Source: a virus | Taxonomy: Duplodnaviria; Heunggongvirae; Uroviricota; Caudoviricetes | Length of the DNA: 31,991 nucleotides | IMG/VR virus record: IMGVR_UViG_2563366883_000019 | Location: 1-31,991 of that record | Strand: one strand, 5' to 3' | Part shown: piece by piece, positions 9,413 through 18,732 of the stretch | Position numbering within the stretch: the first letter of the stretch is position 1 | Layout of the letters: the number at the start of each line of letters is the position of its first letter | Notes under the pieces: generated by a model | What the model was told of the DNA's origin: nothing | The model's database searches: none | The model's input: only the letters and a program-made list of their open reading frames with translations | Program-made: the position numbers and the translations under genes

Positions 9413-11118
9413 CAGTGAGCCATCCAGTGTGTGGTTCTGCGTTTATCCGTTTTCTGTTTTACCCTCACCGGCATTCTGGCGCGCATCTCCTGGGCAATCA
9501 TGTAGCTCATAAGCTGATCATCAAAACAGCCTTCCTGTGCATTCATGGAGCCTTTCGCGTCATAAACGTAGGTGTTCATTTCTGATAATGTGCCCGACCA
9601 GCGGATCCCCGACAGGCCGTTATTCAGCAGCGTTTTCATTCCCTCTGTCAGGACCGGTTTACTCTGGCGGGTTGTCAGCCAGCCAAGACGGGGCGTATCG
9701 TCGTCATATGCCTGGTCAAGGTGCTGTTCGTTGTAGATATAACGCGTCGGATAGAGTTCCCTGAGTTTCAGGATAACGGCATGTCCGTGATTGTTACGCT
9801 CCGGCCCCACAAACGCATTGTTGTACATACGGCAGACCTGCGCAATGAGATGAGCGAAAAGCTCCGCATCGAGATGACCAAACCAGTGAGCCACCTGCTC
9901 ACCATTACTGCATCTGATGATATCCAGCGATGAGCGGTCTCCGTGCTCCAGCCCCTCAGCGGTATCCGCTCCGCATACATACTCTTCATCCGGATCCGGC
10001 AGCTCCCAGACCAGCAGATAATTCATCAGCGTCCGGTGCTGTTCGGCTTTATTCCCGTCACGCAGAGACTGTGCTTTGGTCTTCGTTCCTGTAACCGGTT
10101 CAATGTCATAAACAATCAGCGGTGGCGAACAGAATGACTCTGCCTGCAGCGTGCTTTCCGCACTGAACACCCGTCGTCCTGACGTCAGAAACGCCTCCTG
10201 TGGCGTTGAGGGAAATTCCTGCTTCATTTCCTCACGCTGTTCAGTTTCCTTGCAGATGTACCAGTGTTTCTGCTCATCGGTAAGCGTGATGTTCATTGCT
10301 TTTTCAACCGCAGAAAAATACGCTGTTTTTTCCCGTGACAGCTTAAGTCCGCTTTCCGGCACTCTGGCGCTGTATTTGAGATCCTGCCACCAGGCGTAAA
10401 AATGGAATTTATAATCCTGTGGCGTCAGCGCCAGCCCTGATGCAGTGATTTCCTGTGCCCGGTTACTCATCTCGTAAAAATCGCCACCCACACCTTCAGC
10501 AGTGGATTCATCAAAAATAATGCACTCATCAGAGACGGCATTAAGTGTACCGGTTCGCAGTTCTTTCGCCTTAGCCGGATATTTTGCGCAAATTTTGCCG
10601 TGCTCTGAGATATGCAGGCGCTGCACCGTACCTGAACGGAATGAGGTTGCCACCTGGATACTAGAGCCGTGACCAAACAGGATATAGCCACCGCTGGCTC
10701 CGCTACGACGTTCAACGATGGTGAATGAGGCTCTCAGCCAGTCAGGAAGATGATCAAACGGTACAGCAATTTTGGTGCGGAAAATTTCACTGGCAGCCTG
10801 TTTATCCTGAGCGACAATCCCGCATTTGAGATGCGGTATGAATAATGCCTGGTCGAGAAGATAAATATCAATGGCCGTGGAAAACCCCAGCTGGCGTGCT
10901 TTCAGGATAATATTTTTATTGTGCATGCTCCGGAACAACTGGCGCTGCGCCGGTCGCATTCTGAAGGTGACCAGCTCACCTTTTTCGTTCTGTATCTTGT
11001 AGAGATGATTGAGCCGCCACCAGGGATTGCTCAGTTTAGTCATGATGAACAGACGTTGTTCGGTCCCGGTCATTTCTGACGGTTCATCACATCGCGGTTC
11101 ATTCTTCCGGAATGTCAT
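9412..11118 (-). CDS. terL: Terminase large subunit (568 aa, P22/Terminase_6-like)
   Basis: Deviant Walker A motif KARQLGFST, characteristic of P22-type large terminases; GGGGAG lies 5 nt upstream of the ATG; overlaps the terS 3' end by 20 nt. Confidence 0.9.
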   Translation of the reverse strand: MTFRKNEPRCDEPSEMTGTEQRLFIMTKLSNPWWRLNHLYKIQNEKGELVTFRMRPAQRQLFRSMHNKNIILKARQLGFSTAIDIYLLDQALFIPHLKCGIVAQDKQAASEIFRTKIAVPFDHLPDWLRASFTIVERRSGASGGYILFGHGSSIQVATSFRSGTVQRLHISEHGKICAKYPAKAKELRTGTLNAVSDECIIFDESTAEGVGGDFYEMSNRAQEITASGLALTPQDYKFHFYAWWQDLKYSARVPESGLKLSREKTAYFSAVEKAMNITLTDEQKHWYICKETEQREEMKQEFPSTPQEAFLTSGRRVFSAESTLQAESFCSPPLIVYDIEPVTGTKTKAQSLRDGNKAEQHRTLMNYLLVWELPDPDEEYVCGADTAEGLEHGDRSSLDIIRCSNGEQVAHWFGHLDAELFAHLIAQVCRMYNNAFVGPERNNHGHAVILKLRELYPTRYIYNEQHLDQAYDDDTPRLGWLTTRQSKPVLTEGMKTLLNNGLSGIRWSGTLSEMNTYVYDAKGSMNAQEGCFDDQLMSYMIAQEMRARMPVRVKQKTDKRRTTHWMAH

Positions 11119-11950
11119 CCAGTCTCCCCGAATTACTCATTTCATGCAGCGATGACACGATGTCACTGACAGGCGTAACAACGCCCCGACGCTGGCTGGT
11201 CAGAATATCGGTTTCCGCTCTGAGTTTATCTCTGGCAGCGTTGATTCTTTCCCGGTCAGCACGAAGTTTTGGTGCTGTTTCCGCCAGAACGTCCAGCGTC
11301 AGCAATGAGCGTTCAATTGACTCGATACGGGCAATATTCCGGTCAAGGGCCTGTTCTGCTTTGAGTATTTTGTCGTACAGGGCAACACGGGTTTCCACGT
11401 CAGCCGCCTCTTTCAGGTCGGCGAACATTTTTTTCAGTGTTCCTGTTACTGAAAGTGCGCGGGCACGGGTGAACACCAGTTCATCGAACAGCACCATATC
11501 GGACGCATCATCCATGAGGTTATCTGCCTCAAGATACTTCGCATATCCACGGTGTCTCACGGCGTGGGTGTTACGGTCGCTAAACCGGGCAACGGGGTGA
11601 GGATTGCCCGATCTGCTGTTGCGTTTCGTTTCTGCCGAATTTGCGCAGTTTTTTGCGCATTTTTCATCACTGCCATCATCGCCGTAAGACTCGTCATTAC
11701 TGGACTCGTCATCAGCTCCATGCGCATTTTTTTGTGCGCTTTTTTGAGTGTCAATTTGCGCACTTTTTTGCGCATTTTTCTGCGCACTTTCCTCTGTATT
11801 TTTGGGGGAGTTTTTGCGCAGTTTTATGTACCGACGAGCCGTGCCATAGCAGATATTGTTCTGTCGACACCAGTCCTGAAGTTTTATGCCAGTTCTGGCA
11901 TGTTCGCGTCGGAATGCCTGCTCCAGTTTTTTCCAGTCCAGCTTTGCCAT
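11099..11950 (-). CDS. terS: Terminase small subunit with N-terminal HTH (283 aa)
   Basis: Immediately upstream of and overlapping terL; N-terminal DNA-binding-like segment (NICYGTARRYIKLRK); contains an AQK-type low-complexity repeat encoded by the TGCGCA array. Confidence 0.7.
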   Translation of the reverse strand: MAKLDWKKLEQAFRREHARTGIKLQDWCRQNNICYGTARRYIKLRKNSPKNTEESAQKNAQKSAQIDTQKSAQKNAHGADDESSNDESYGDDGSDEKCAKNCANSAETKRNSRSGNPHPVARFSDRNTHAVRHRGYAKYLEADNLMDDASDMVLFDELVFTRARALSVTGTLKKMFADLKEAADVETRVALYDKILKAEQALDRNIARIESIERSLLTLDVLAETAPKLRADRERINAARDKLRAETDILTSQRRGVVTPVSDIVSSLHEMSNSGRLDDIPEE

Positions 11951-12251
11951 GTCACTTTCTGACGTCCTCTGTTAAAAACTGACGCATAATGACCGCTGTG
12001 ATTTTTCAGAATTCACACAGCAGCGTCTTGTTTGATTGATATTTACACAATATGGTTGTTTTATCCGGTTTCTTCCACCACCGCACCGGACAGGCGGCCA
12101 TGCGGGAAAACGCTCACGTTACCTGAAAACGTGGAAAGCCCGGTGTGCATCGTTTTTGATTATCCCCACACACTCGCGCAGGAGGTCCAGTGTCTGGCTG
12201 AGGTCTCTGTTAATGCGGGAATACTGCGACGATACGGCGCATCAGCAAAAC

Positions 12252-12719
12252 TTATTTCAGGCACTGAGTGCGGATATATTCCTGTGCCCCTTCCAGCTGC
12301 TTCTGCATCATCATCAACCGCTCTCTGAGGGTGAAATAATCCCGTTCAGCGGTGTCTGCCAGTCGGGGGCCGGTTGCATTATCCATGCCGGAGGTGCCGG
12401 TGGCTTCACGCACGGTACCGGAGCAGGTGGCGTTGATCCGCAGGCGCTTACGACCAGCAGCAACATCAGCACGCAGAGTTTCATTTTCAGCTCTCGCATC
12501 GGCTAATTCCCTCGAGTATTTTGCATCGAGCGCAGCAACATCGCGCTGGCGCACCTGCATATCAGTAATGGTGGCGTTTGCCAGCTCCAGCTCTCTGGCT
12601 TTTTTATCGCGCTGCGCTTTGTAGGTGATGGCGTTATCGCGGTAATGGTCTGTTGCCAGCCACAGCGCACCACAGCCACCCGCCAGGACAATAATCACCA
12701 CACACAGAACACGGCTCAT
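12252..12719 (-). CDS. Rz: Rz i-spanin (155 aa)
   Basis: Near-identical motifs to lambda Rz ([44 protein letters not shown]); N-terminal TM segment. Confidence 0.95.
12314..12499 (-). CDS. Rz1: Rz1 o-spanin lipoprotein, embedded in the +1 frame of Rz (61 aa)
   Basis: Matches lambda Rz1 ([30 protein letters not shown]); lipobox VSAC; Pro-rich; lies wholly inside Rz in another frame. Confidence 0.9.
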
Positions 12720-12726
12720 CTCTCTT

Positions 12727-12858
12727 TCACCCCACCAGTCCCGATAACGTCAGGACTCGCCAGGCGGTGGAAAAGAAAATGGCAACCAGCATTAGTGAAA
12801 ATGAAATGCCGACAATTACACAGAGGATCTTCGCCAGCGTTATGAGTTTGTCTGACAT
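12727..12858 (-). CDS. Small single-TM membrane peptide (43 aa) between endolysin and Rz
   Basis: ATG at 12858 is preceded by AGGGAGG with 7-nt spacing; the hydrophobic core [19 protein letters not shown] is TM-like; stop lies 7 nt before the Rz ATG. Confidence 0.5.
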
Positions 12859-12872
12859 GCTTAATCCTCCCT

Positions 12873-13019
12873 TCACGATTTCAACGCAATGACCAGTTTT
12901 GCCAGCCCATACAGCATCGGGGACACAGCAACACCGACCGCCACCCACTTAATGGCAAAAGCCAGTGCTCTGCTGATGTCATCAGTTACAGGCGCTTTCA
13001 GTTCAAGGCCATTTTTCAT
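12873..13019 (-). CDS. Small C-terminally membrane-anchored protein (48 aa from the preferred ATG; alternative starts at 13055 and 13088)
   Basis: The ORF track frame is 12873-13088. Preferred ATG at 13019 has GAGG 6 nt upstream; the longest start overlaps a hairpin. C-terminal hydrophobic segment WVAVGVAVSPMLYGLAKLVIAL. Confidence 0.4.
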   Translation of the reverse strand: MKNGLELKAPVTDDISRALAFAIKWVAVGVAVSPMLYGLAKLVIALKS

Positions 13020-13087
13020 AGTCAACCTCAACAGAATTCGTTTATACTTTTCCATGTTCTCCCTTGCCTTATCCAAGGTCAGAAACA

Positions 13088-13122
13088 CAAAACCCCGCTT
13101 GCAGCCAACAAACGGGGTTTTT
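13088..13122. terminator. Hairpin with flanking A/T runs between endolysin and the small membrane ORFs (orientation ambiguous)
   Basis: AACCCCG ... CGGGGTT stem with a 15-nt loop; TTTTT on the plus side and TTTTGTG on the minus side. Confidence 0.3.
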
Positions 13123-13211
13123 ACTTTTATTCACTTAGTTTTTGTCAGTTCGCAGGATTTCGTGTTATCCGTCCGTGTGAGCAAACCGCATTTTTCAGCA
13201 AAATATTCTGC

Positions 13212-13745
13212 TTATCTGTCAATTCCCCAGCACGCCAGCGCGCTCTCCTGGTCACGCCGCGATACCTGCCCGTAACAGTTATTTGAGCGATTCCGACAGT
13301 CCCTGCCGCCGTCATATATCCATCGGCGGATTTCAGCACATGCACCTTTCCGGTCTCCGGCGTTCAGTTTCCGGTAAAACGTTGAGGTGAAGCATTTCGA
13401 AGGCCCGATGTTGTACGGACAGAATGACGCGATGCCCGCTTTCTGCGGTTCAGTCAGTGGCAATTTGATGTTTTTCTCCACCCATGCCAGCGCCTTATCA
13501 CGTTCAATGGCATTAACCTGAGCGCATTTTTCCTTCGACAACTTCATGCCCGGGACGACAGGTTTGCCATCCACCATGATGGCACCACGGCAGATGGTCC
13601 AGATCCCCGCACCATCACGGTATGCCGTGGTGTGGTTACCTTCTTTTTCGTCAAGAAACTGGTCGAGGATTTCAGGCGCAGAAGCACCTGTGGCAATCAG
13701 CGCCAGAACGGCTACCGATAAACCATAGTGGAGTTTCCTGCTCAT
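13212..13745 (-). CDS. R: SAR endolysin (T4-lysozyme-like muramidase with signal-anchor-release N-terminus, 177 aa)
   Basis: N-terminal Gly/Ala-rich weakly hydrophobic segment (GLSVAVLALIATGASAP); lysozyme catalytic region (EKEGNHTTAYRD...GIWT); C-terminus similar to R21 (GACAEIRRWIY...RRDQESALACWG); directly follows the pinholin. Confidence 0.85.
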   Translation of the reverse strand: MSRKLHYGLSVAVLALIATGASAPEILDQFLDEKEGNHTTAYRDGAGIWTICRGAIMVDGKPVVPGMKLSKEKCAQVNAIERDKALAWVEKNIKLPLTEPQKAGIASFCPYNIGPSKCFTSTFYRKLNAGDRKGACAEIRRWIYDGGRDCRNRSNNCYGQVSRRDQESALACWGIDR

Positions 13746-13749
13746 CAGC

Positions 13750-13965
13750 TTACTCTCCCCGCGCAGCTTTGCGCCGGTCTTCTTTAATCTTGAAATACAG
13801 ATTCGTCAGGTATGTCAGGAACCCCAGACACAGGCTCCCCAAAACCCCGATAGCAGCCCACTGTGACGGAGTAACCTGATCCAACCACTGTAGAAACCAG
13901 TAACCCGCACTGCCCGCAGAAGTACCATAGGCTATGCCCGTTGATATTTTTTCCATCTGATACAT
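13750..13965 (-). CDS. S: Class II pinholin with dual-start motif (S21-like, 71/68 aa)
   Basis: Near-identical to phage 21 S ([26 protein letters not shown]...AAIGVLGSL...[21 protein letters not shown]); Met1 and Met4 give antiholin and holin forms. Confidence 0.9.
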
Positions 13966-14041
13966 ATCCCCGCCCCGACAGACCTGTGCTACCGGAAATA
14001 AAAAAGGCCATCAGTGTTTTACTGATGGCCCTGCCCCGCCG

Positions 14042-14332
14042 TTACAGCATTGTGCCCGGTTCGGGTTGTGTGTCTGTCATATCCGTCACCGGTGACTCCG
14101 GCTGAATATCACCATTTTCCGTGGTGACATCTTCCGCCTGTGGTTCCGGAAGCAGTTCCGGGGATGGTTCCGGCTGTGCACCAAGCAATTCATCCAGAAT
14201 TGAATCCACTTCTGCATCAAGACGCTCTTCCAGATTCTGGCGGAGTTTTTGTTTCAGGACGCTTCTGACTTCTTCAGAGCGAATGACTTCCTTCACTGCC
14301 TCAGCAGTGACCAGTTGTTTTATATCTGTCAT
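14042..14332 (-). CDS. Hypothetical acidic protein (about 97 aa from internal ATG)
   Basis: ORF between nanS-p and the lysis genes; the ORF track's longer frame starts at 14506 and overlaps the upstream small ORF; no strong SD. Confidence 0.35.
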   Translation of the reverse strand: MTDIKQLVTAEAVKEVIRSEEVRSVLKQKLRQNLEERLDAEVDSILDELLGAQPEPSPELLPEPQAEDVTTENGDIQPESPVTDMTDTQPEPGTML

Positions 14333-14357
14333 GAGATTTTCTCGTTGAAAGGGGTTA

Positions 14358-14552
14358 TTAAGAAGGTTGTTCCGGAATGAGTGGGGCTTCTGTTTTTGCT
14401 CCGGCTGACTGAGTGGCGCTGATTTTCTCAGCGGCCCTTTTGTCAATCTGTCTGCGCCAGAAGTCGCGTACTGCCCTGTATCCACCTGAAAGAAGATACA
14501 ACACACAGACCACCGTACAGAAGTACAGCATTAACTGGTTGATGAATGTCAT
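14358..14552 (-). CDS. Hypothetical small membrane protein (64 aa)
   Basis: N-terminal TM-like segment LMLYFCTVVCVLYLLSGG; located downstream of nanS-p. Confidence 0.4.
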   Translation of the reverse strand: MTFINQLMLYFCTVVCVLYLLSGGYRAVRDFWRRQIDKRAAEKISATQSAGAKTEAPLIPEQPS

Positions 14553-14650
14553 GGTTTATTACCGTTACTGTTGACAATGAGAACTGTTTTCATTTAGAAA
14601 TGATTGATGTCGAAAGCATCCTTTCGTTAGATTCTCCATTGGGATTACCT

Positions 14651-14687
14651 CCGCCAGTCTCCATTCCTGTTGCTGGCGGTTTTTTTT
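14651..14687 (+). terminator. Plus-strand intrinsic terminator abutting the nanS-p 3' end
   Basis: CCGCCAG-(15 nt loop)-CTGGCGG followed by T8 on the plus strand. Confidence 0.5.
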
Positions 14688-14693
14688 CGTCTG

Positions 14694-16667
14694 TTATGCT
14701 GCTACGGCATTCACACCAACAGTAAGACTTTCAATCAGCACAGGGTAAGTTGCCGCATTTCCGGTAATATCCGTAATTGCCAGCGCGTTGGCCTCAAAGG
14801 CTGCATTCGTCCATCTGGTCAGCGTAAACGGTTTTCCTGCTGCATTATCAAGCACCGGCGTGACGTTCAGCGAGCCACCACCCGGGAAGCGGAAAGTCAG
14901 CGTGTGCCAGTCGTGATCGAACGGACCATAACTACCAAGCCGCTGTGATGTGGTGTTTGCATGATACATCACATTGATGTTTGTTTTATCAGTCTGCAGA
15001 TAGAAGGCCGCAATATAACCCTCCTCTGATTCCGCTCCCGGCCATCCACTACCGCGCCAGTAAATACCCGCAGAATATTGATTTGCAGAAGCATTGAGAG
15101 ATACATCATCGGGGATTTTAAAGCGCAGCGTGATTTCACCGCCGTTATCGAACAGCTCCTTCCCCTTACCGGCATCAATTGCGTGCGATACTTTCCAGGT
15201 CTTTTTCTGTGCAAGACCATTTTCTGGTTTTTCAAGACGAAGGGCTTTTTTACCTGAACCACTGTCACTGACCAGCGTGTTTTTGACATCTGTCAGCGTC
15301 CAGCCCTGCGAAGCCAGAGCGGCATTTTCCGCATTCACATCATAAGCCAGCACTGACTGTATCTTTGTCGGGACAACGGCTTCAGGCTGAGTATCGCCAC
15401 TCTCCTGTGCTGGTTGCGATACGCCTCCGCCTGAAGAAACCGCGGCTTTTGTCACTTTCCCGGAAACAAAATCTGCCACTCTGCCCACATGCAGAAGAAT
15501 GGCTGTTGCCAGACGGTCGGAAATAATTCCGCGACGCGCCCATGAACCAAAGTGGGTTTTACGATCGGATGTTGTCCAGCTCTTCGCATCCGTTCGTCCA
15601 CCGGAACCATAATACCCGATAGCCGGAATATCCGGGTCTTCTGACGGTTCATTGGTCCCGACTTTCTGACCATTGTCATCCATCATAAACGGCACAAAGA
15701 AGATATTTTTACCGGCTTTGGTTTTGTATGCGCCATAGACGGCATCGTATTGCGCTGAATACGTCTCCTTCCAGTAGTACGTCGTGTCACCACAAATCCA
15801 GGGCACCAGAGAAGGAGAAGCACCAGCGCACTGACCGGATACTCCCGCCAGGTCAGAACGGTATTTTTCCACCATGGCATCAAACATGGCGGGCTGACTG
15901 GCGTACGCTCCCTGTTTTAAATCAAACTCGCCCTGCATCCAGACAACACAAAGCAGTATGTTTTTGGGGTTTGCCTTCAGCGCGGCCTGAGTGCGTGTCA
16001 GCAGGTCTTTATACAACGGCTTATCAACGCCCCATCGTTCAGATTTATCCGACGCTCCTGAACTTTCACTGAACGTTCCGTCAGCACCGGCTGTAAACGC
16101 AGAGCCACCACGACAGCACGGCACTAACAAAATACCCGCATTTTCCGGCATAAAGGGCAACAGCTTTTTGGCAATATGCAATCCCTGTCCGACACACCCA
16201 TACTGCTCTGCGCTGGCTTTCGGATGAGAAAAACGGCTCAAATCCTGCACATCATGCAGGCAGTGGTCCGCCGGAATGATGTCGTTATATGCACAGGCCG
16301 CACCACCCGGTGTCACCGTACTGCGACGCGCCAGCTGTTTAATACGCGGGTCCGGACGGTCATATGTCTCCGGCAGCGGCAGGCCTTCACCATACGCCAT
16401 GCCGTTTGACTGTCCGGCCAGCGCAATGACAAAGTAATATTCTGGTTCAACAACAACAGTCCGGGTACCATCTCCCCCCGGTGAAACTACCGGAGAGGTC
16501 ATATCCCCTTCAGCGACTATAGCCTGGATAAATTCAGCACCATAACCCGCGTTTGAGATAATCGGACTACCATAGGGTTGCCAGCCTTCCTTCAGTTTTT
16601 GCGTCAGTTTTCCTGCGAGGTCTGACGGCGATGATGCCCTGACCACGTCATAGTGTTTAAATGCCAT
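14694..16667 (-). CDS. nanS-p: Prophage-encoded sialate O-acetylesterase NanS-p (SGNH/SASA esterase domain plus C-terminal lectin-like region, about 657 aa)
   Basis: ALAGQSNGMAYGEG esterase motif of the NanS/YjhS family; large size and position downstream of the Q/late leader match the nanS-p gene found downstream of stx in EHEC phages. Preferred ATG at 16667 has GGGAGG 4 nt upstream; the ORF track start at 16697 is TTG. Confidence 0.75.
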   Translation of the reverse strand: MAFKHYDVVRASSPSDLAGKLTQKLKEGWQPYGSPIISNAGYGAEFIQAIVAEGDMTSPVVSPGGDGTRTVVVEPEYYFVIALAGQSNGMAYGEGLPLPETYDRPDPRIKQLARRSTVTPGGAACAYNDIIPADHCLHDVQDLSRFSHPKASAEQYGCVGQGLHIAKKLLPFMPENAGILLVPCCRGGSAFTAGADGTFSESSGASDKSERWGVDKPLYKDLLTRTQAALKANPKNILLCVVWMQGEFDLKQGAYASQPAMFDAMVEKYRSDLAGVSGQCAGASPSLVPWICGDTTYYWKETYSAQYDAVYGAYKTKAGKNIFFVPFMMDDNGQKVGTNEPSEDPDIPAIGYYGSGGRTDAKSWTTSDRKTHFGSWARRGIISDRLATAILLHVGRVADFVSGKVTKAAVSSGGGVSQPAQESGDTQPEAVVPTKIQSVLAYDVNAENAALASQGWTLTDVKNTLVSDSGSGKKALRLEKPENGLAQKKTWKVSHAIDAGKGKELFDNGGEITLRFKIPDDVSLNASANQYSAGIYWRGSGWPGAESEEGYIAAFYLQTDKTNINVMYHANTTSQRLGSYGPFDHDWHTLTFRFPGGGSLNVTPVLDNAAGKPFTLTRWTNAAFEANALAITDITGNAATYPVLIESLTVGVNAVAA

Positions 16668-16868
16668 TATTCCTCCCGGCAGGGATAGTGTATGCAATCA
16701 AGATAAGGTGCGGGCTGACGTCAGTCATGGACAAGGGTTCAGAAACAGGAGGATGACTACAGCCCGCAATACGAAAAAGACCATACAGTTGCGCAGAGTG
16801 ATTACTGTCGGGTATTATTCGCCAGCTGAAAATTGATCACTTCACGTTTTGTTGTTTATTCCTTGCCA

Positions 16869-16897
16869 CCCGCGCTTCCCGGCGCGGGCTTTTTTTT
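16869..16897 (+). terminator. Plus-strand intrinsic terminator upstream of nanS-p
   Basis: CCCGCGC-TTCCCG-GCGCGGG followed by T8. Confidence 0.55.
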
Positions 16898-16903
16898 ATC
16901 CAA

Positions 16904-16929
16904 CAAGAAAGCCCCTCCGGAGAGGGGCT
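16904..16929 (-). terminator. Minus-strand hairpin terminator ending repeat copy A
   Basis: GCCCCTC-TCCG-GAGGGGC on the minus strand followed by TTTCTTGTT. Confidence 0.5.
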
Positions 16930-17136
16930 GGAGAGTAGCGCTATGTACCGTTCATGCATGGTGCAGGGTGCCTCCCGGTGAGTTCAGTATCAGCACCTGA
17001 ACCCGCACCAGAAAGGATAAGGGGTGTGACCAAACACCTGTCGCTGATATGCCCCTCCGCACAGGGGGATTCACCATGCCATATTTTTTTAACAAACTTC
17101 CCGCTGGCCAGACAATAATCGCCAGCCTGAATTGTG
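16904..17136 (-). repeat. Copy A of a diverged element of about 230 bp (candidate structured RNA) in the late leader
   Basis: Shares conserved 5' and 3' blocks with copy B; the central block differs; internal helices are retained by compensatory changes. Confidence 0.6.
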
Positions 17137-17387
17137 AGTAACGTGGCATTTTACGGGAAAACTGTTTTCTGCAGTAAAAAGGCCCGCCGGAGCGAGCCTG
17201 GAAGGATAGCGGTCATGTGATGCCGGTTTCCCGGTAACTCAGCATCGGTATCTGAGTCAACGTTTTCTCTACTGGGTCATTTCCGATACGTTCCGCCTTC
17301 CGGCAGACTTTCATCACGTCAGAAAATATAGCACCCTGAGTAACAGGACAGTACTCAGAATTCAGGAAACTGTGACACATCCTGCAC

Positions 17388-17412
17388 AGAAAAGCCCCTC
17401 CGGAGAGGGGCT
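17388..17412 (-). terminator. Minus-strand hairpin terminator ending repeat copy B
   Basis: Identical GCCCCTC/GAGGGGC hairpin followed by TTTTCTG on the minus strand. Confidence 0.5.
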
Positions 17413-17606
17413 GAAGTATAGCCTAATTTCTGTCTGTCGCATGGTGCCAGGTGCCTCCCGGTAAATTCAGCCTGGCTACTGAATTTGCATGTTCGCTGGA
17501 TCATACACTTTGCCAGATGCCCCGCCGCTGAGGGGGATTCACCACGCGATGCAATTTTTAACAAATTCTCCGGCAGCCAGACAATCATCAAGCTGTGGAA
17601 TTGTGA
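17388..17606 (-). repeat. Copy B of the same element
   Basis: Same conserved blocks as copy A; the overlapping ORFs in the two copies are not conserved at protein level. Confidence 0.6.
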
Positions 17607-17926
17607 GGTATTTAAAAATTTCGCAGCCTCTTGCCACCCGCTTTTCACAAAAATCGTATGTAGAAGGCCGCAGCGTAACTATCACTGATGAATTCAGGAC
17701 CCCCAGAGGCTACGGCTCAGTTTGGATTGTGGCGGCCGGAATCGAACCAGCTCCCAGCGGTGCGCTGCCGATTACAATACGCGCGGCGATCCGCTACATG
17801 ACTAGTATTTTCACAGTCGCCTGTCTGCTAGCTCGCCATTGAGCTTCACCACAACGATAAGAGCACTGCGCACACCTTTCACCAATTCCACGAGGTCTGC
17901 GGGTTCAATGCTCTTACCTGTTGTGC

Positions 17927-17958
17927 AAACAAAAAGCCCCGACATTTCTGCCGAGGCC
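17927..17958 (-). terminator. Candidate tR'-like terminator downstream of the putative late promoter
   Basis: Minus-strand hairpin GCCTCGGCA-GAAA-TGTCGGGGC (two G:U pairs) followed by TTTTTGTTTG. Confidence 0.45.
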
Positions 17959-18064
17959 TTTACCTAATCTAGCCAGTATGCCGATCCTAAATATTATCGA
18001 CGACCGAGGTAAATCAGGATTTCTCTTTCGCTTCTCAGTGCGCTTTTGCTCCGAGCATACACAA

Positions 18065-18093
18065 AACATACTACTTTCATTTCTCGAAAGCAA
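18065..18093 (-). promoter_or_regulatory. Candidate late promoter (pR'-like) just downstream of the Q-locus genes
   Basis: Minus-strand TTGCTT, 17-nt spacer, TATGTT, located about 25 nt after the stop of the 204-aa ORF and about 100 nt upstream of a terminator hairpin. Confidence 0.3.
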
Positions 18094-18117
18094 CGCATTT
18101 ACAAAAAATATTTTGCA

Positions 18118-18732
18118 TCATCCAGCAATCACTAGAAGTTCTTTCTCCAATTCTCGCTTCATTGCATAAAACATTTCTGAATCAAGGACCCTCTCGCACC
18201 ACACGACCCGCCTCCGGCAATACTGAATATCAACTCCTGTTATCTGAGAAATCATCCTGGCGATATCTTGCGTGCTGTCGCGATTGCAATATCGCCTAAT
18301 AGCTACATCACGGACAGGGCTTTCACGATGAAAGGTCTCAACCATCACACGTTCAACGAAAGCAGCATCATCGGATTCTTTGGCGAGAGCAATGATATTA
18401 CCTGCCGATGACTGAGGGATGACCAGTTCTCGGGCTTTCTGATGGAGTTCATCTCCACGTAGTCCGTCTTCTTCATACAGACGCATGACAACAGACTCAA
18501 TCTGCTTAGCTTTGTCATCGCTCCACTGACTGCGAATCATCAGTCGCCCAATAACGTTAATTGCACCACAAGGAGAATCATCACCAGCGTTAACATTTCC
18601 CCATACCTGTAGCATGTAGTGAACCCATGCTTTCTGACGAGAGTTAATGATTTTCTTCGGATGCCTCCATATGCGGCGGAAATGAGCATCATTAATAAAG
18701 TTAACCATGCCGAATACTGGGGTTAGCCGCAT
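18118..18732 (-). CDS. Putative late antiterminator Q-like protein (about 204 aa)
   Basis: Position after ninH and immediately upstream of a promoter-like element plus terminator; ATG overlaps the stop of the upstream 80-aa ORF (TGATG). Assignment is positional; no motif recognised confidently. Confidence 0.4.
   Translation of the reverse strand: MRLTPVFGMVNFINDAHFRRIWRHPKKIINSRQKAWVHYMLQVWGNVNAGDDSPCGAINVIGRLMIRSQWSDDKAKQIESVVMRLYEEDGLRGDELHQKARELVIPQSSAGNIIALAKESDDAAFVERVMVETFHRESPVRDVAIRRYCNRDSTQDIARMISQITGVDIQYCRRRVVWCERVLDSEMFYAMKRELEKELLVIAG

Follow-up and report, generated by a model that had tools for sequence, protein, structure and literature searches.

Among the lambdoid phages, the textbook switch to late gene expression is the pR'-qut-tR' region. 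In lambda, this region lies directly past the Q gene, is read in the same direction, and produces a short terminated leader RNA, the 6S RNA, which is 194 nt long. The -10 element of lambda pR' is followed 5-6 nt further on, at about +1, by a -10-like pause element (TAAATT-tgactc-AACGAT), and RNA polymerase pauses at +16/+17. Three families of Q are recognised, PF06530, PF03589, and PF06323 (PMC9388147). The Q of lambda is a PF03589 protein with a zinc ribbon, and phage 21 and 933W encode Q proteins of the PF06530 type. In both lambda and phage 21, the Q-binding element (QBE) is located between the -35 and -10 elements, and in phage 21, it is a direct repeat of TGAGCA at -21/-13 (PMC6606751). 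The Q21 protein forms a ring at the RNA exit channel and blocks terminator hairpins (PMC6606751, 10.1101/651190). StxS is the short RNA that Stx phages make from pR' to tR', and transcripts of this kind can serve as regulatory sRNAs (PMC7547250).

The locus described here is part of a window of 31,991 nt, which is the whole stretch of phage DNA that was analysed and to which all coordinates refer. Its minus-strand segment 18117-17927 is very probably the late regulatory cassette pR'-qut-tR' of a lambdoid prophage, judging from the sequence of the window and of its relatives. The switch is, in kind, the textbook one. The new part is modest: a Q protein from an unannotated branch of the Q21 superfamily, to which DUF1133 proteins apparently also belong, with a recognisable, conserved qut signature. 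What the analysis established by computation is which sequence elements are present, how far they are conserved and linked to the Q gene, how Q is predicted to fold, and in what order the genes lie.

A sequence-only reading had proposed that a promoter and a hairpin with a T-run, about 100 nt apart, lie just 3' of the Q locus. The elements are where it placed them: TTGCTT-17-TATGTT is found on the minus strand at 18093-18065 and the hairpin with its T-run at 17960-17927, the measured gap between the -10 hexamer and the hairpin is 106 nt, and the -35 hexamer begins 24 nt past the stop codon of the Q-like ORF. Its interpretation as pR'-qut-tR' also agrees with the presence upstream of a PHROG 753 Q-like gene with a Q21-like predicted fold, with a conserved promoter, and with a terminator in 53/53 related loci. 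As for the qut architecture, the promoter and terminator had been seen, but the key component of qut, the pause element TATGCT at 18059-18054, had been overlooked.

The gene upstream of the cassette (18118..18732, minus strand) encodes 204 aa followed by a TGA stop codon. It matches PHROG 753, 'anti-termination protein Q-like', with an E-value of 3.5e-68, and has a Q21-like predicted fold; a 208-aa ORF from 18744 has four extra N-terminal codons that are not present in homologs. The family is small, comprising 44 representatives (50% identity) in a set of 1.84 billion proteins, and its members are named 'hypothetical protein' in public sources. The type of Q had been assumed. The product is Q-like by PHROG and by fold, but is a member of none of the three Pfam Q families. 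Searches of Pfam (even at E <= 10) and NCBIfam gave no match, and neither did the models PF03589 (Q-lambda) and PF06323 (Q82). The Q of 933W, used as a positive control, scored 170 bits on PF06530; in contrast to PF06530 Q proteins, the window Q lacks a match to this model and is ~45-50 aa longer. A sequence search of the PDB returned spurious ERp29 matches only.

The relationship to Q21 emerges from structure and from intermediates. An AF2 model of the window Q, made from 34 homologs, is of medium confidence (mean pLDDT 74.6). When it was compared with the PDB by Foldseek, the top 11 matches were all chains of phage 21 Q (entries 6P1A, 6P1B, 6P1C, 6P18, 6P19, 6JNY, and 6JNX), with a prob of 0.98-1.0, TM-scores of 0.57-0.67 normalised to Q21, and E-values of ~0.02. 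Below these, prob was 0.2 or less apart from one further Q21 chain, and no chain of lambda Q was among the 50 PDB fold matches listed. A viral structure library gave only weak matches resembling sigma region 4, which are compatible with the Q21 fold and uninformative. At the sequence level, a profile of the family finds two distant proteins, P0135 and P0139, both of which score above or near threshold on PF06530 and DUF1133; for P0139, the E-value to the family profile is 1.8e-13, the PF06530 score is 36 bits (gathering score 26), and a DUF1133 match is also found. The family profile, when aligned by hhalign, gave no significant match to the single sequence of 933W Q, a non-significant E of 0.11 over 23 columns with lambda Q, and a weak E of 0.009 with a DUF1133 protein; the window Q itself did not reach significance against the DUF1133 model. 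Because direct profile comparison is not significant, the assignment as Q rests on fold, transitive matches, and position. By its modelled fold and by these intermediates, the window Q is best regarded as a divergent relative of Q21.

Linkage between the gene and the cassette was examined in both directions. Homologs with 41-86% identity from 49 bacterial loci (Enterobacter, Citrobacter, Serratia, Pantoea, Erwinia, Photorhabdus, Xenorhabdus, Proteus, and Providencia) were combined with three phages and the window into a set of 53 loci, anchored on the second of two -10-like hexamers. The same order is found past the Q stop codon in 53/53 loci: a -35/-10 promoter, a gap of 4-6 nt, TAnGCT, a conserved block from +6 to +28, and a terminator. 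The distance from the stop codon to the promoter hexamers is 36-85 nt, with one case overlapping the ORF end. In the reverse direction, IMG/VR was searched for the motif TATGCTCGG-N3-7-AAAGCGNAC, which gave 119 sites, 103 of them with at least 760 nt of upstream DNA. Directly upstream of 101 of the 103 is a Q-type gene, so the motif is tied to such genes. At 94 sites, this is a homolog of the window Q immediately upstream on the same strand, ending mostly 52-83 nt away, and at seven, it is a 192-aa Q of DUF1133/PF06530 type. The remaining two sites are apparent chance matches inside unrelated ORFs.

The 192-aa protein matches DUF1133 over its full length (E 3e-88) and scores 40.7 bits on PF06530 against a threshold of 26. 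These matches and the position of its gene suggest that DUF1133 (PF06576), a domain of 'unknown function', may be a family of Q antiterminators; a literature search for DUF1133 found no papers. The DUF1133-type cassettes of uncultivated phage contigs resemble that of the window in that the Q gene precedes the same TATGCT-CGGG..AAAGCGAACTGAGC motif and a terminator, but differ in that the promoter overlaps the ORF end. One such protein is encoded at about 7700-8400 of contig L077, and others are found in L100, L116, L134, L142, L154, and L158.

The conservation that accompanies Q is confined to one end of the cassette. The similarity to Salmonella phages detected by blastn covers only 18101-18026, ~-43 to +33 of the predicted start. 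Beyond it lies a variable leader body (17961..18025, minus strand), which is deleted or replaced in relatives: the middle ~60 nt of the window leader are absent from Salmonella phages 29485 and UPF_BP1, and in L009, L010, and L011 (about 2170-2400), lambda 6S RNA sequence takes over as the leader body after a shared stretch of promoter, pause element, and first ~28 transcribed bases. These swaps and deletions limit the part inherited with Q to about -45 to +33, the expected location of a qut site, and indicate that the leader body and terminator are interchangeable. The fusion to the lambda 6S body also occurs in L016 and L025, forming a mosaic joint inside the leader. Short leaders (L004 1205-1225, L005 1565-1585, L007, L008, and L077) contain an A-rich unstructured stretch, CAAACAAACAA or AACAGAACAAAAC, which lies between a 5' inverted repeat and the terminator and resembles Hfq-binding ARN motifs.

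The leader ends in an intrinsic terminator, tR' (17927..17960, minus strand), made up of a hairpin at 17960-17933 and a T-tract, TTTTTGTTT, that ends at 17927. Its core stem, GGCCTCGGCA / TGTCGGGGCT(T) with a GAAA loop, occupies 17958-17935 and is extended by A-U pairs to 17960-17933; the dG of the hairpin is -17.5 kcal/mol. A hairpin and T-tract with a dG of -15 or lower arose in 9/200 dinucleotide shuffles and is thus moderately unusual. All 53 loci yielded intrinsic terminator matches, of which 51 are convincing. In these 51, the T-tract lies 55-226 nt past the pause element; over the whole set of 53, the median is 87 nt.

Directly past tR', the window carries a boundary sequence, (T)TTTGTTTGCACAACAGGTAAGAGCATTGA..., at 17880..17935 on the minus strand, which is common to many lambdoid phages. 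Its 56 nt (17935-17880) show 98% identity both to the 'bsq4 boundary sequence' of CUS-3 and to what comes after Tr' in the HK75 annotation, and an identical string is also found 3' of tR' in lambda (TGCACAACAGGTAAGAGCATTGA). Since the sequence after the T-run is shared, the window terminator is positionally homologous to tR' of lambda and of HK75, a phage with a Q of the HK75/HK022 type. In E. coli genomes, the boundary sequence is found in 312/5426, and the Q-specific part in only 31. Those 312 genomes carry different Q types. E. coli G1/2 and PhiR5_2 are 100% identical to the window at the cassette. The boundary sequence (window 17880-17935; L002 1501-1556; L057 about 975-1010), common to lambda, HK75, HK629, and CUS-3, has the appearance of a joint at which Q/qut modules and late regions recombine.

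The RNA that would be made from this cassette invites another explanation, namely that the locus is primarily a free-standing sRNA gene, with a ~130-nt product acting in trans like StxS, and with antitermination secondary or absent. Such an RNA, constitutive and ending at tR' like StxS and lambda 6S RNA, is predicted here, and the short pR'-tR' transcripts described above can indeed be regulatory. The whole leader folds more stably than shuffled sequences (z -2.9), tR' being the 3' hairpin of that fold, and covariation offers weak evidence of a 5' stem-loop. In the short versions, an A-rich single-stranded stretch precedes a U-tailed terminator, a combination that, speculatively, recalls Hfq-binding sRNAs such as StxS. 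Nevertheless, conservation is limited to approximately the first 30 nt of the RNA, and the body is swapped or deleted, unlike that of a conserved sRNA bearing a seed. Rfam searches at gathering and permissive thresholds identified no family over the leader, which has no sequence or Rfam similarity to StxS or 6S RNA, and a trans-acting role for the window RNA is speculative. Strict linkage to the Q gene is also what a qut site predicts. A primary role as an sRNA gene is therefore improbable, although sRNA and antitermination roles are not mutually exclusive.

On the minus strand, the predicted pR' comprises the -35 hexamer TTGCTT (18088..18093), a 17-nt spacer, tcgagaaatgaaagtag (18071..18087), and the -10 hexamer TATGTT (18065..18070). 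Upstream of the -35 hexamer is an A/T-rich block, tgcaaaatattttttgtaaatgcg (18094..18117, minus strand), a candidate UP element, and among the relatives, those of the enterobacterial class share its pattern aatATTTTnTAAAT. The spacer contains (C/T)GAGAAATGAAAGTAG. The block GAGAAATGAAAGTAG (18085-18071) has no clear repeat within it but sits where a QBE is expected, and at the same position, GAAAT and (G/A)AAGT are conserved in class A relatives, making it a candidate Q-binding element. The direct repeat of TGAGCA that characterises phage 21 was sought in the 17-nt spacer and was not found.

Taken alone, the promoter is unremarkable. A tool's scan for promoters and terminators listed neither pR' nor the tR' hairpin, after which a separate set of relaxed promoter rules and a separate search for hairpins with T-tracts were applied. 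The relaxed scan found five comparable promoter-like sites on 251 nt of the minus strand, against ~3 in shuffles, and so the promoter alone is not above chance. The promoter prediction in the sequence-only reading thus stands as regards the presence of the hexamers, but their match to the consensus, at 7/12 positions, is at chance level by itself. What raises the promoter and the hairpin above chance is that the whole arrangement is conserved behind every homolog of the upstream gene, and the motif-to-gene test agrees. The hexamers originally chosen are those conserved in position over 53 loci, and a search of 17900-18118 for a better match yielded no better conserved promoter.

Two other candidates for pR' were considered and rejected. 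TTTACC-18-TAGGAT (18013-17984, minus strand) is within the segment that is absent from relatives, and TAGCCA-16-TATTAT (17970-17997, plus strand) is directed away from the late genes. The latter is the best consensus match (9/12) in the region 17880-18130. Situated in the variable part of the leader, it is antisense to the leader and points towards Q; sites of this kind are no more numerous than expected by chance.

Across the 53 loci, the -10 hexamer is TATATT in 21, CATATT in nine, TACATT in five, CACATT in four, and TATGTT, as in the window, in three, with other variants making up the rest. Two classes of upstream elements accompany it. In the first, to which the window belongs, TTGnnn precedes the -10 by 16-17 nt; in the second (Pantoea/Erwinia/Rosenbergiella), AAGACA is combined with a TGn extended -10. 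The hexamers and their spacing of 16-18 nt keep their position, in two compensating architectures. Having two promoter designs around the same -10 position argues that the upstream hexamer serves as the true -10, and that TAnGCT is something else.

TATGCT (18054..18059, minus strand), separated from the -10 TATGTT by five bases (ttgtg), is predicted to be a sigma70-dependent pause element (SDPE). The two hexamers are separated by 5 nt in most loci (30), by 6 nt in 19, and by 4 nt in four. TAnGCT is present in 53/53 loci, where A2 and T6 are invariant and T1, G4, and C5 are found in 47, 52, and 51, respectively; CGG follows directly in 41/53, and after it comes a conserved AAAGCG. A2 and T6 are the two bases of a -10 element that are read by sigma region 2, and therefore their invariance is the pattern expected of a sigma-dependent pause element. 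The same invariance could also be taken to mean that TATGCT (18059-18054) is itself the real -10, with a start ~11 nt further downstream and no sigma-dependent pause element. Of the two hexamers it shows the higher conservation, A2 and T6 being present in 53/53, and it equals TATGTT in its match to TATAAT (4/6). However, in neither promoter class is there a -35-like hexamer or a TGn at the right distance from TATGCT, whereas for the upstream hexamer, nearly every locus supplies such an element, and lambda pR' has precisely this layout of two -10-like hexamers separated by 5-6 nt. It is thus very unlikely that TATGCT is the promoter's own -10. Taken as a pause element, it would contain the transcription start, which is predicted at A18058 or thereabouts.

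The layout is that of lambda, but the sequences of the promoter and pause element cannot be aligned with those of lambda, and the TTGACT -35-like element beside the lambda pause element has no counterpart in the window cassette. A similar arrangement is seen in HK75 (L002 1448-1466), where the annotated -10 of pR', CATAAT, is followed after 7 nt by TAAGCT, and the annotated Tr' starts inside TAAGCT. This hexamer is a -10-like variant that is found in several relatives of the window cassette.

The initial transcribed region, CGGAGCAAAAGCGCACTGAGAAGC (18026..18053, minus strand), is conserved in Salmonella and Cronobacter phages up to 18026, where blastn conservation ends. In relatives, AAAGCG and GAGC are nearly invariant within it. 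By analogy with lambda, the pause would be at C18042/G18041, ~+17/+18, within the conserved AAAGC|G and ten bases past a G. The window also has a small inverted repeat, CTCGG at 18055-18051 with CTGAG at 18038-18034, which in relatives takes the form GCTCGG/CTGAGC and is formed by G4/C5 of the pause element and the nearly invariant GAGC at ~+24 to +27. Double changes that keep the pairing are GATC/GATC in L043 and L053 and GCTT/AAGC in L040. In all, there are five double-change cells, a number reached by 0/500 shuffles; as variation is low, this covariation is weak evidence.

The near-invariance of G4 and C5 is not accounted for by sigma recognition. One possibility is that the repeat folds as a stem-loop at the 5' end of the short RNA. 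Alternatively, it could be a DNA site, for its arms resemble the QBE hexamer of phage 21, TGAGCA, though they are downstream of the pause element. A tentative extension of this, which is possible but doubtful on present evidence, is that the window Q and the DUF1133 proteins form an experimentally unstudied branch of the Q21 superfamily with a qut design of its own. This design would combine a lambda-like pause element at +1 with the repeat GCTCGG/CTGAGC, acting either as a second DNA contact for Q or as a 5' RNA stem-loop that enables an Hfq-type sRNA like StxS.

Another possibility is that the hairpin merely terminates the early operon through Q, and that the hexamers upstream of it are chance matches. 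The terminator does lie ~160 nt past the Q stop codon, and in the window sequence alone, the promoter match is at chance level. Since the second -10-like element recurs in 53/53 loci along with the hexamers and the distance between them, and the stretch from there to the terminator is not conserved, this can hardly be the case. That the region codes for protein is next to impossible: a 59-aa ORF is present (17914-18093, minus strand, TTG start), but it was rejected as coding because it has no PHROG or NCBIfam match and relatives have 60-nt deletions and replacements inside it, with the conserved block stopping mid-ORF.

With pR'-qut-tR' as the preferred reading, transcription start, pausing, Q binding, and read-through are inferred to proceed as follows. 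The sigma70 promoter TTGCTT-17-TATGTT would fire constitutively, ~35 nt past the end of the Q gene, with transcription starting at ~18058 within the second -10-like hexamer, TATGCT. Sigma region 2 would then re-bind TATGCT on the non-template strand, causing a promoter-proximal pause near +17 at AAAGC/G. Without Q, polymerase would escape and terminate at 17960-17927, giving an RNA of ~130 nt, the shorter counterpart of lambda 6S RNA. As Q accumulates, it might bind DNA in or next to the promoter spacer and load onto the paused complex, making it resistant to terminators; by analogy with Q21, a ring of Q at the RNA exit channel would block terminator hairpins. Polymerase modified in this way could pass tR' and at least three more terminators in the STnc100 region before it reaches nanS-p and the lysis and head genes.

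The transcription unit predicted to be served by Q-modified polymerase (7268..17577, minus strand) was annotated using Rfam, a terminator scan, Pfam, and PHROGs, and all of its features are co-directional with Q. Nearest to the cassette are two STnc100 repeats, members of an Rfam sRNA family, at 17384-17577 and 16899-17108 (138.7 and 129.9 bits). Each copy ends in an intrinsic terminator (17412-17393 and 16929-16910), a third terminator is found at 17199-17180, and all of these come after tR' and before the nanS-p-like gene. A series of terminators in front of late genes is a problem that a processive antiterminator solves. Further along the minus strand are the nanS-p-like esterase (14694-16697; DUF1737, SASA, and DUF6645 domains), the holin (13750-13965), the endolysin (13212-13745), the Rz spanin (12252-12719), the terminase (9412-11950), and the portal (7268-9412).

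Compared with the known systems, the window cassette pairs a Q that is unrelated to that of lambda and has a Q21-like predicted fold with a lambda-like placement of the pause element. The comparison with phages 21 and 933W that had been suggested holds for the logic of promoter, -10-like element, and terminator (PMC6606751), but there is no sequence similarity; in 933W, the annotated qut is 13 nt past the -10, with the terminator ~30 nt beyond. A fold relative of Q21 with such a pause-element placement could be a useful comparison system and introduces no new principle. The practical value of the cassette lies in annotation. It marks the predicted start of late transcription and its normal stop, and so tells annotators which genes are likely to be Q-dependent (nanS-p, lysis, and morphogenesis). 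It also provides a usable late-promoter signature, consisting of a -10, 4-6 nt, TAnGCT-CGG, AAAGCG, and a terminator, behind a type of Q that is annotated as 'hypothetical protein'.

Two further RNA-like features were observed in the window. The minus strand at 17727-17862 is tRNA-like, with acceptor arms TGTGGTG/CGCCACA and a T-arm GCTGG-TTCGATT-CCGGC. The Rfam tRNA model scored it once at 27.5 bits (threshold 29), a narrower search gave nothing, and ARAGORN predicted no gene. Its location is that of ileZ-argN-argO in phage 933W, which raises the possibility of a tRNA gene that has decayed or been interrupted. Within the prophage's early region, the minus strand at 21197-21280 matches the Rfam family sRNA-Xcc1 with 79.6 bits (threshold 53).
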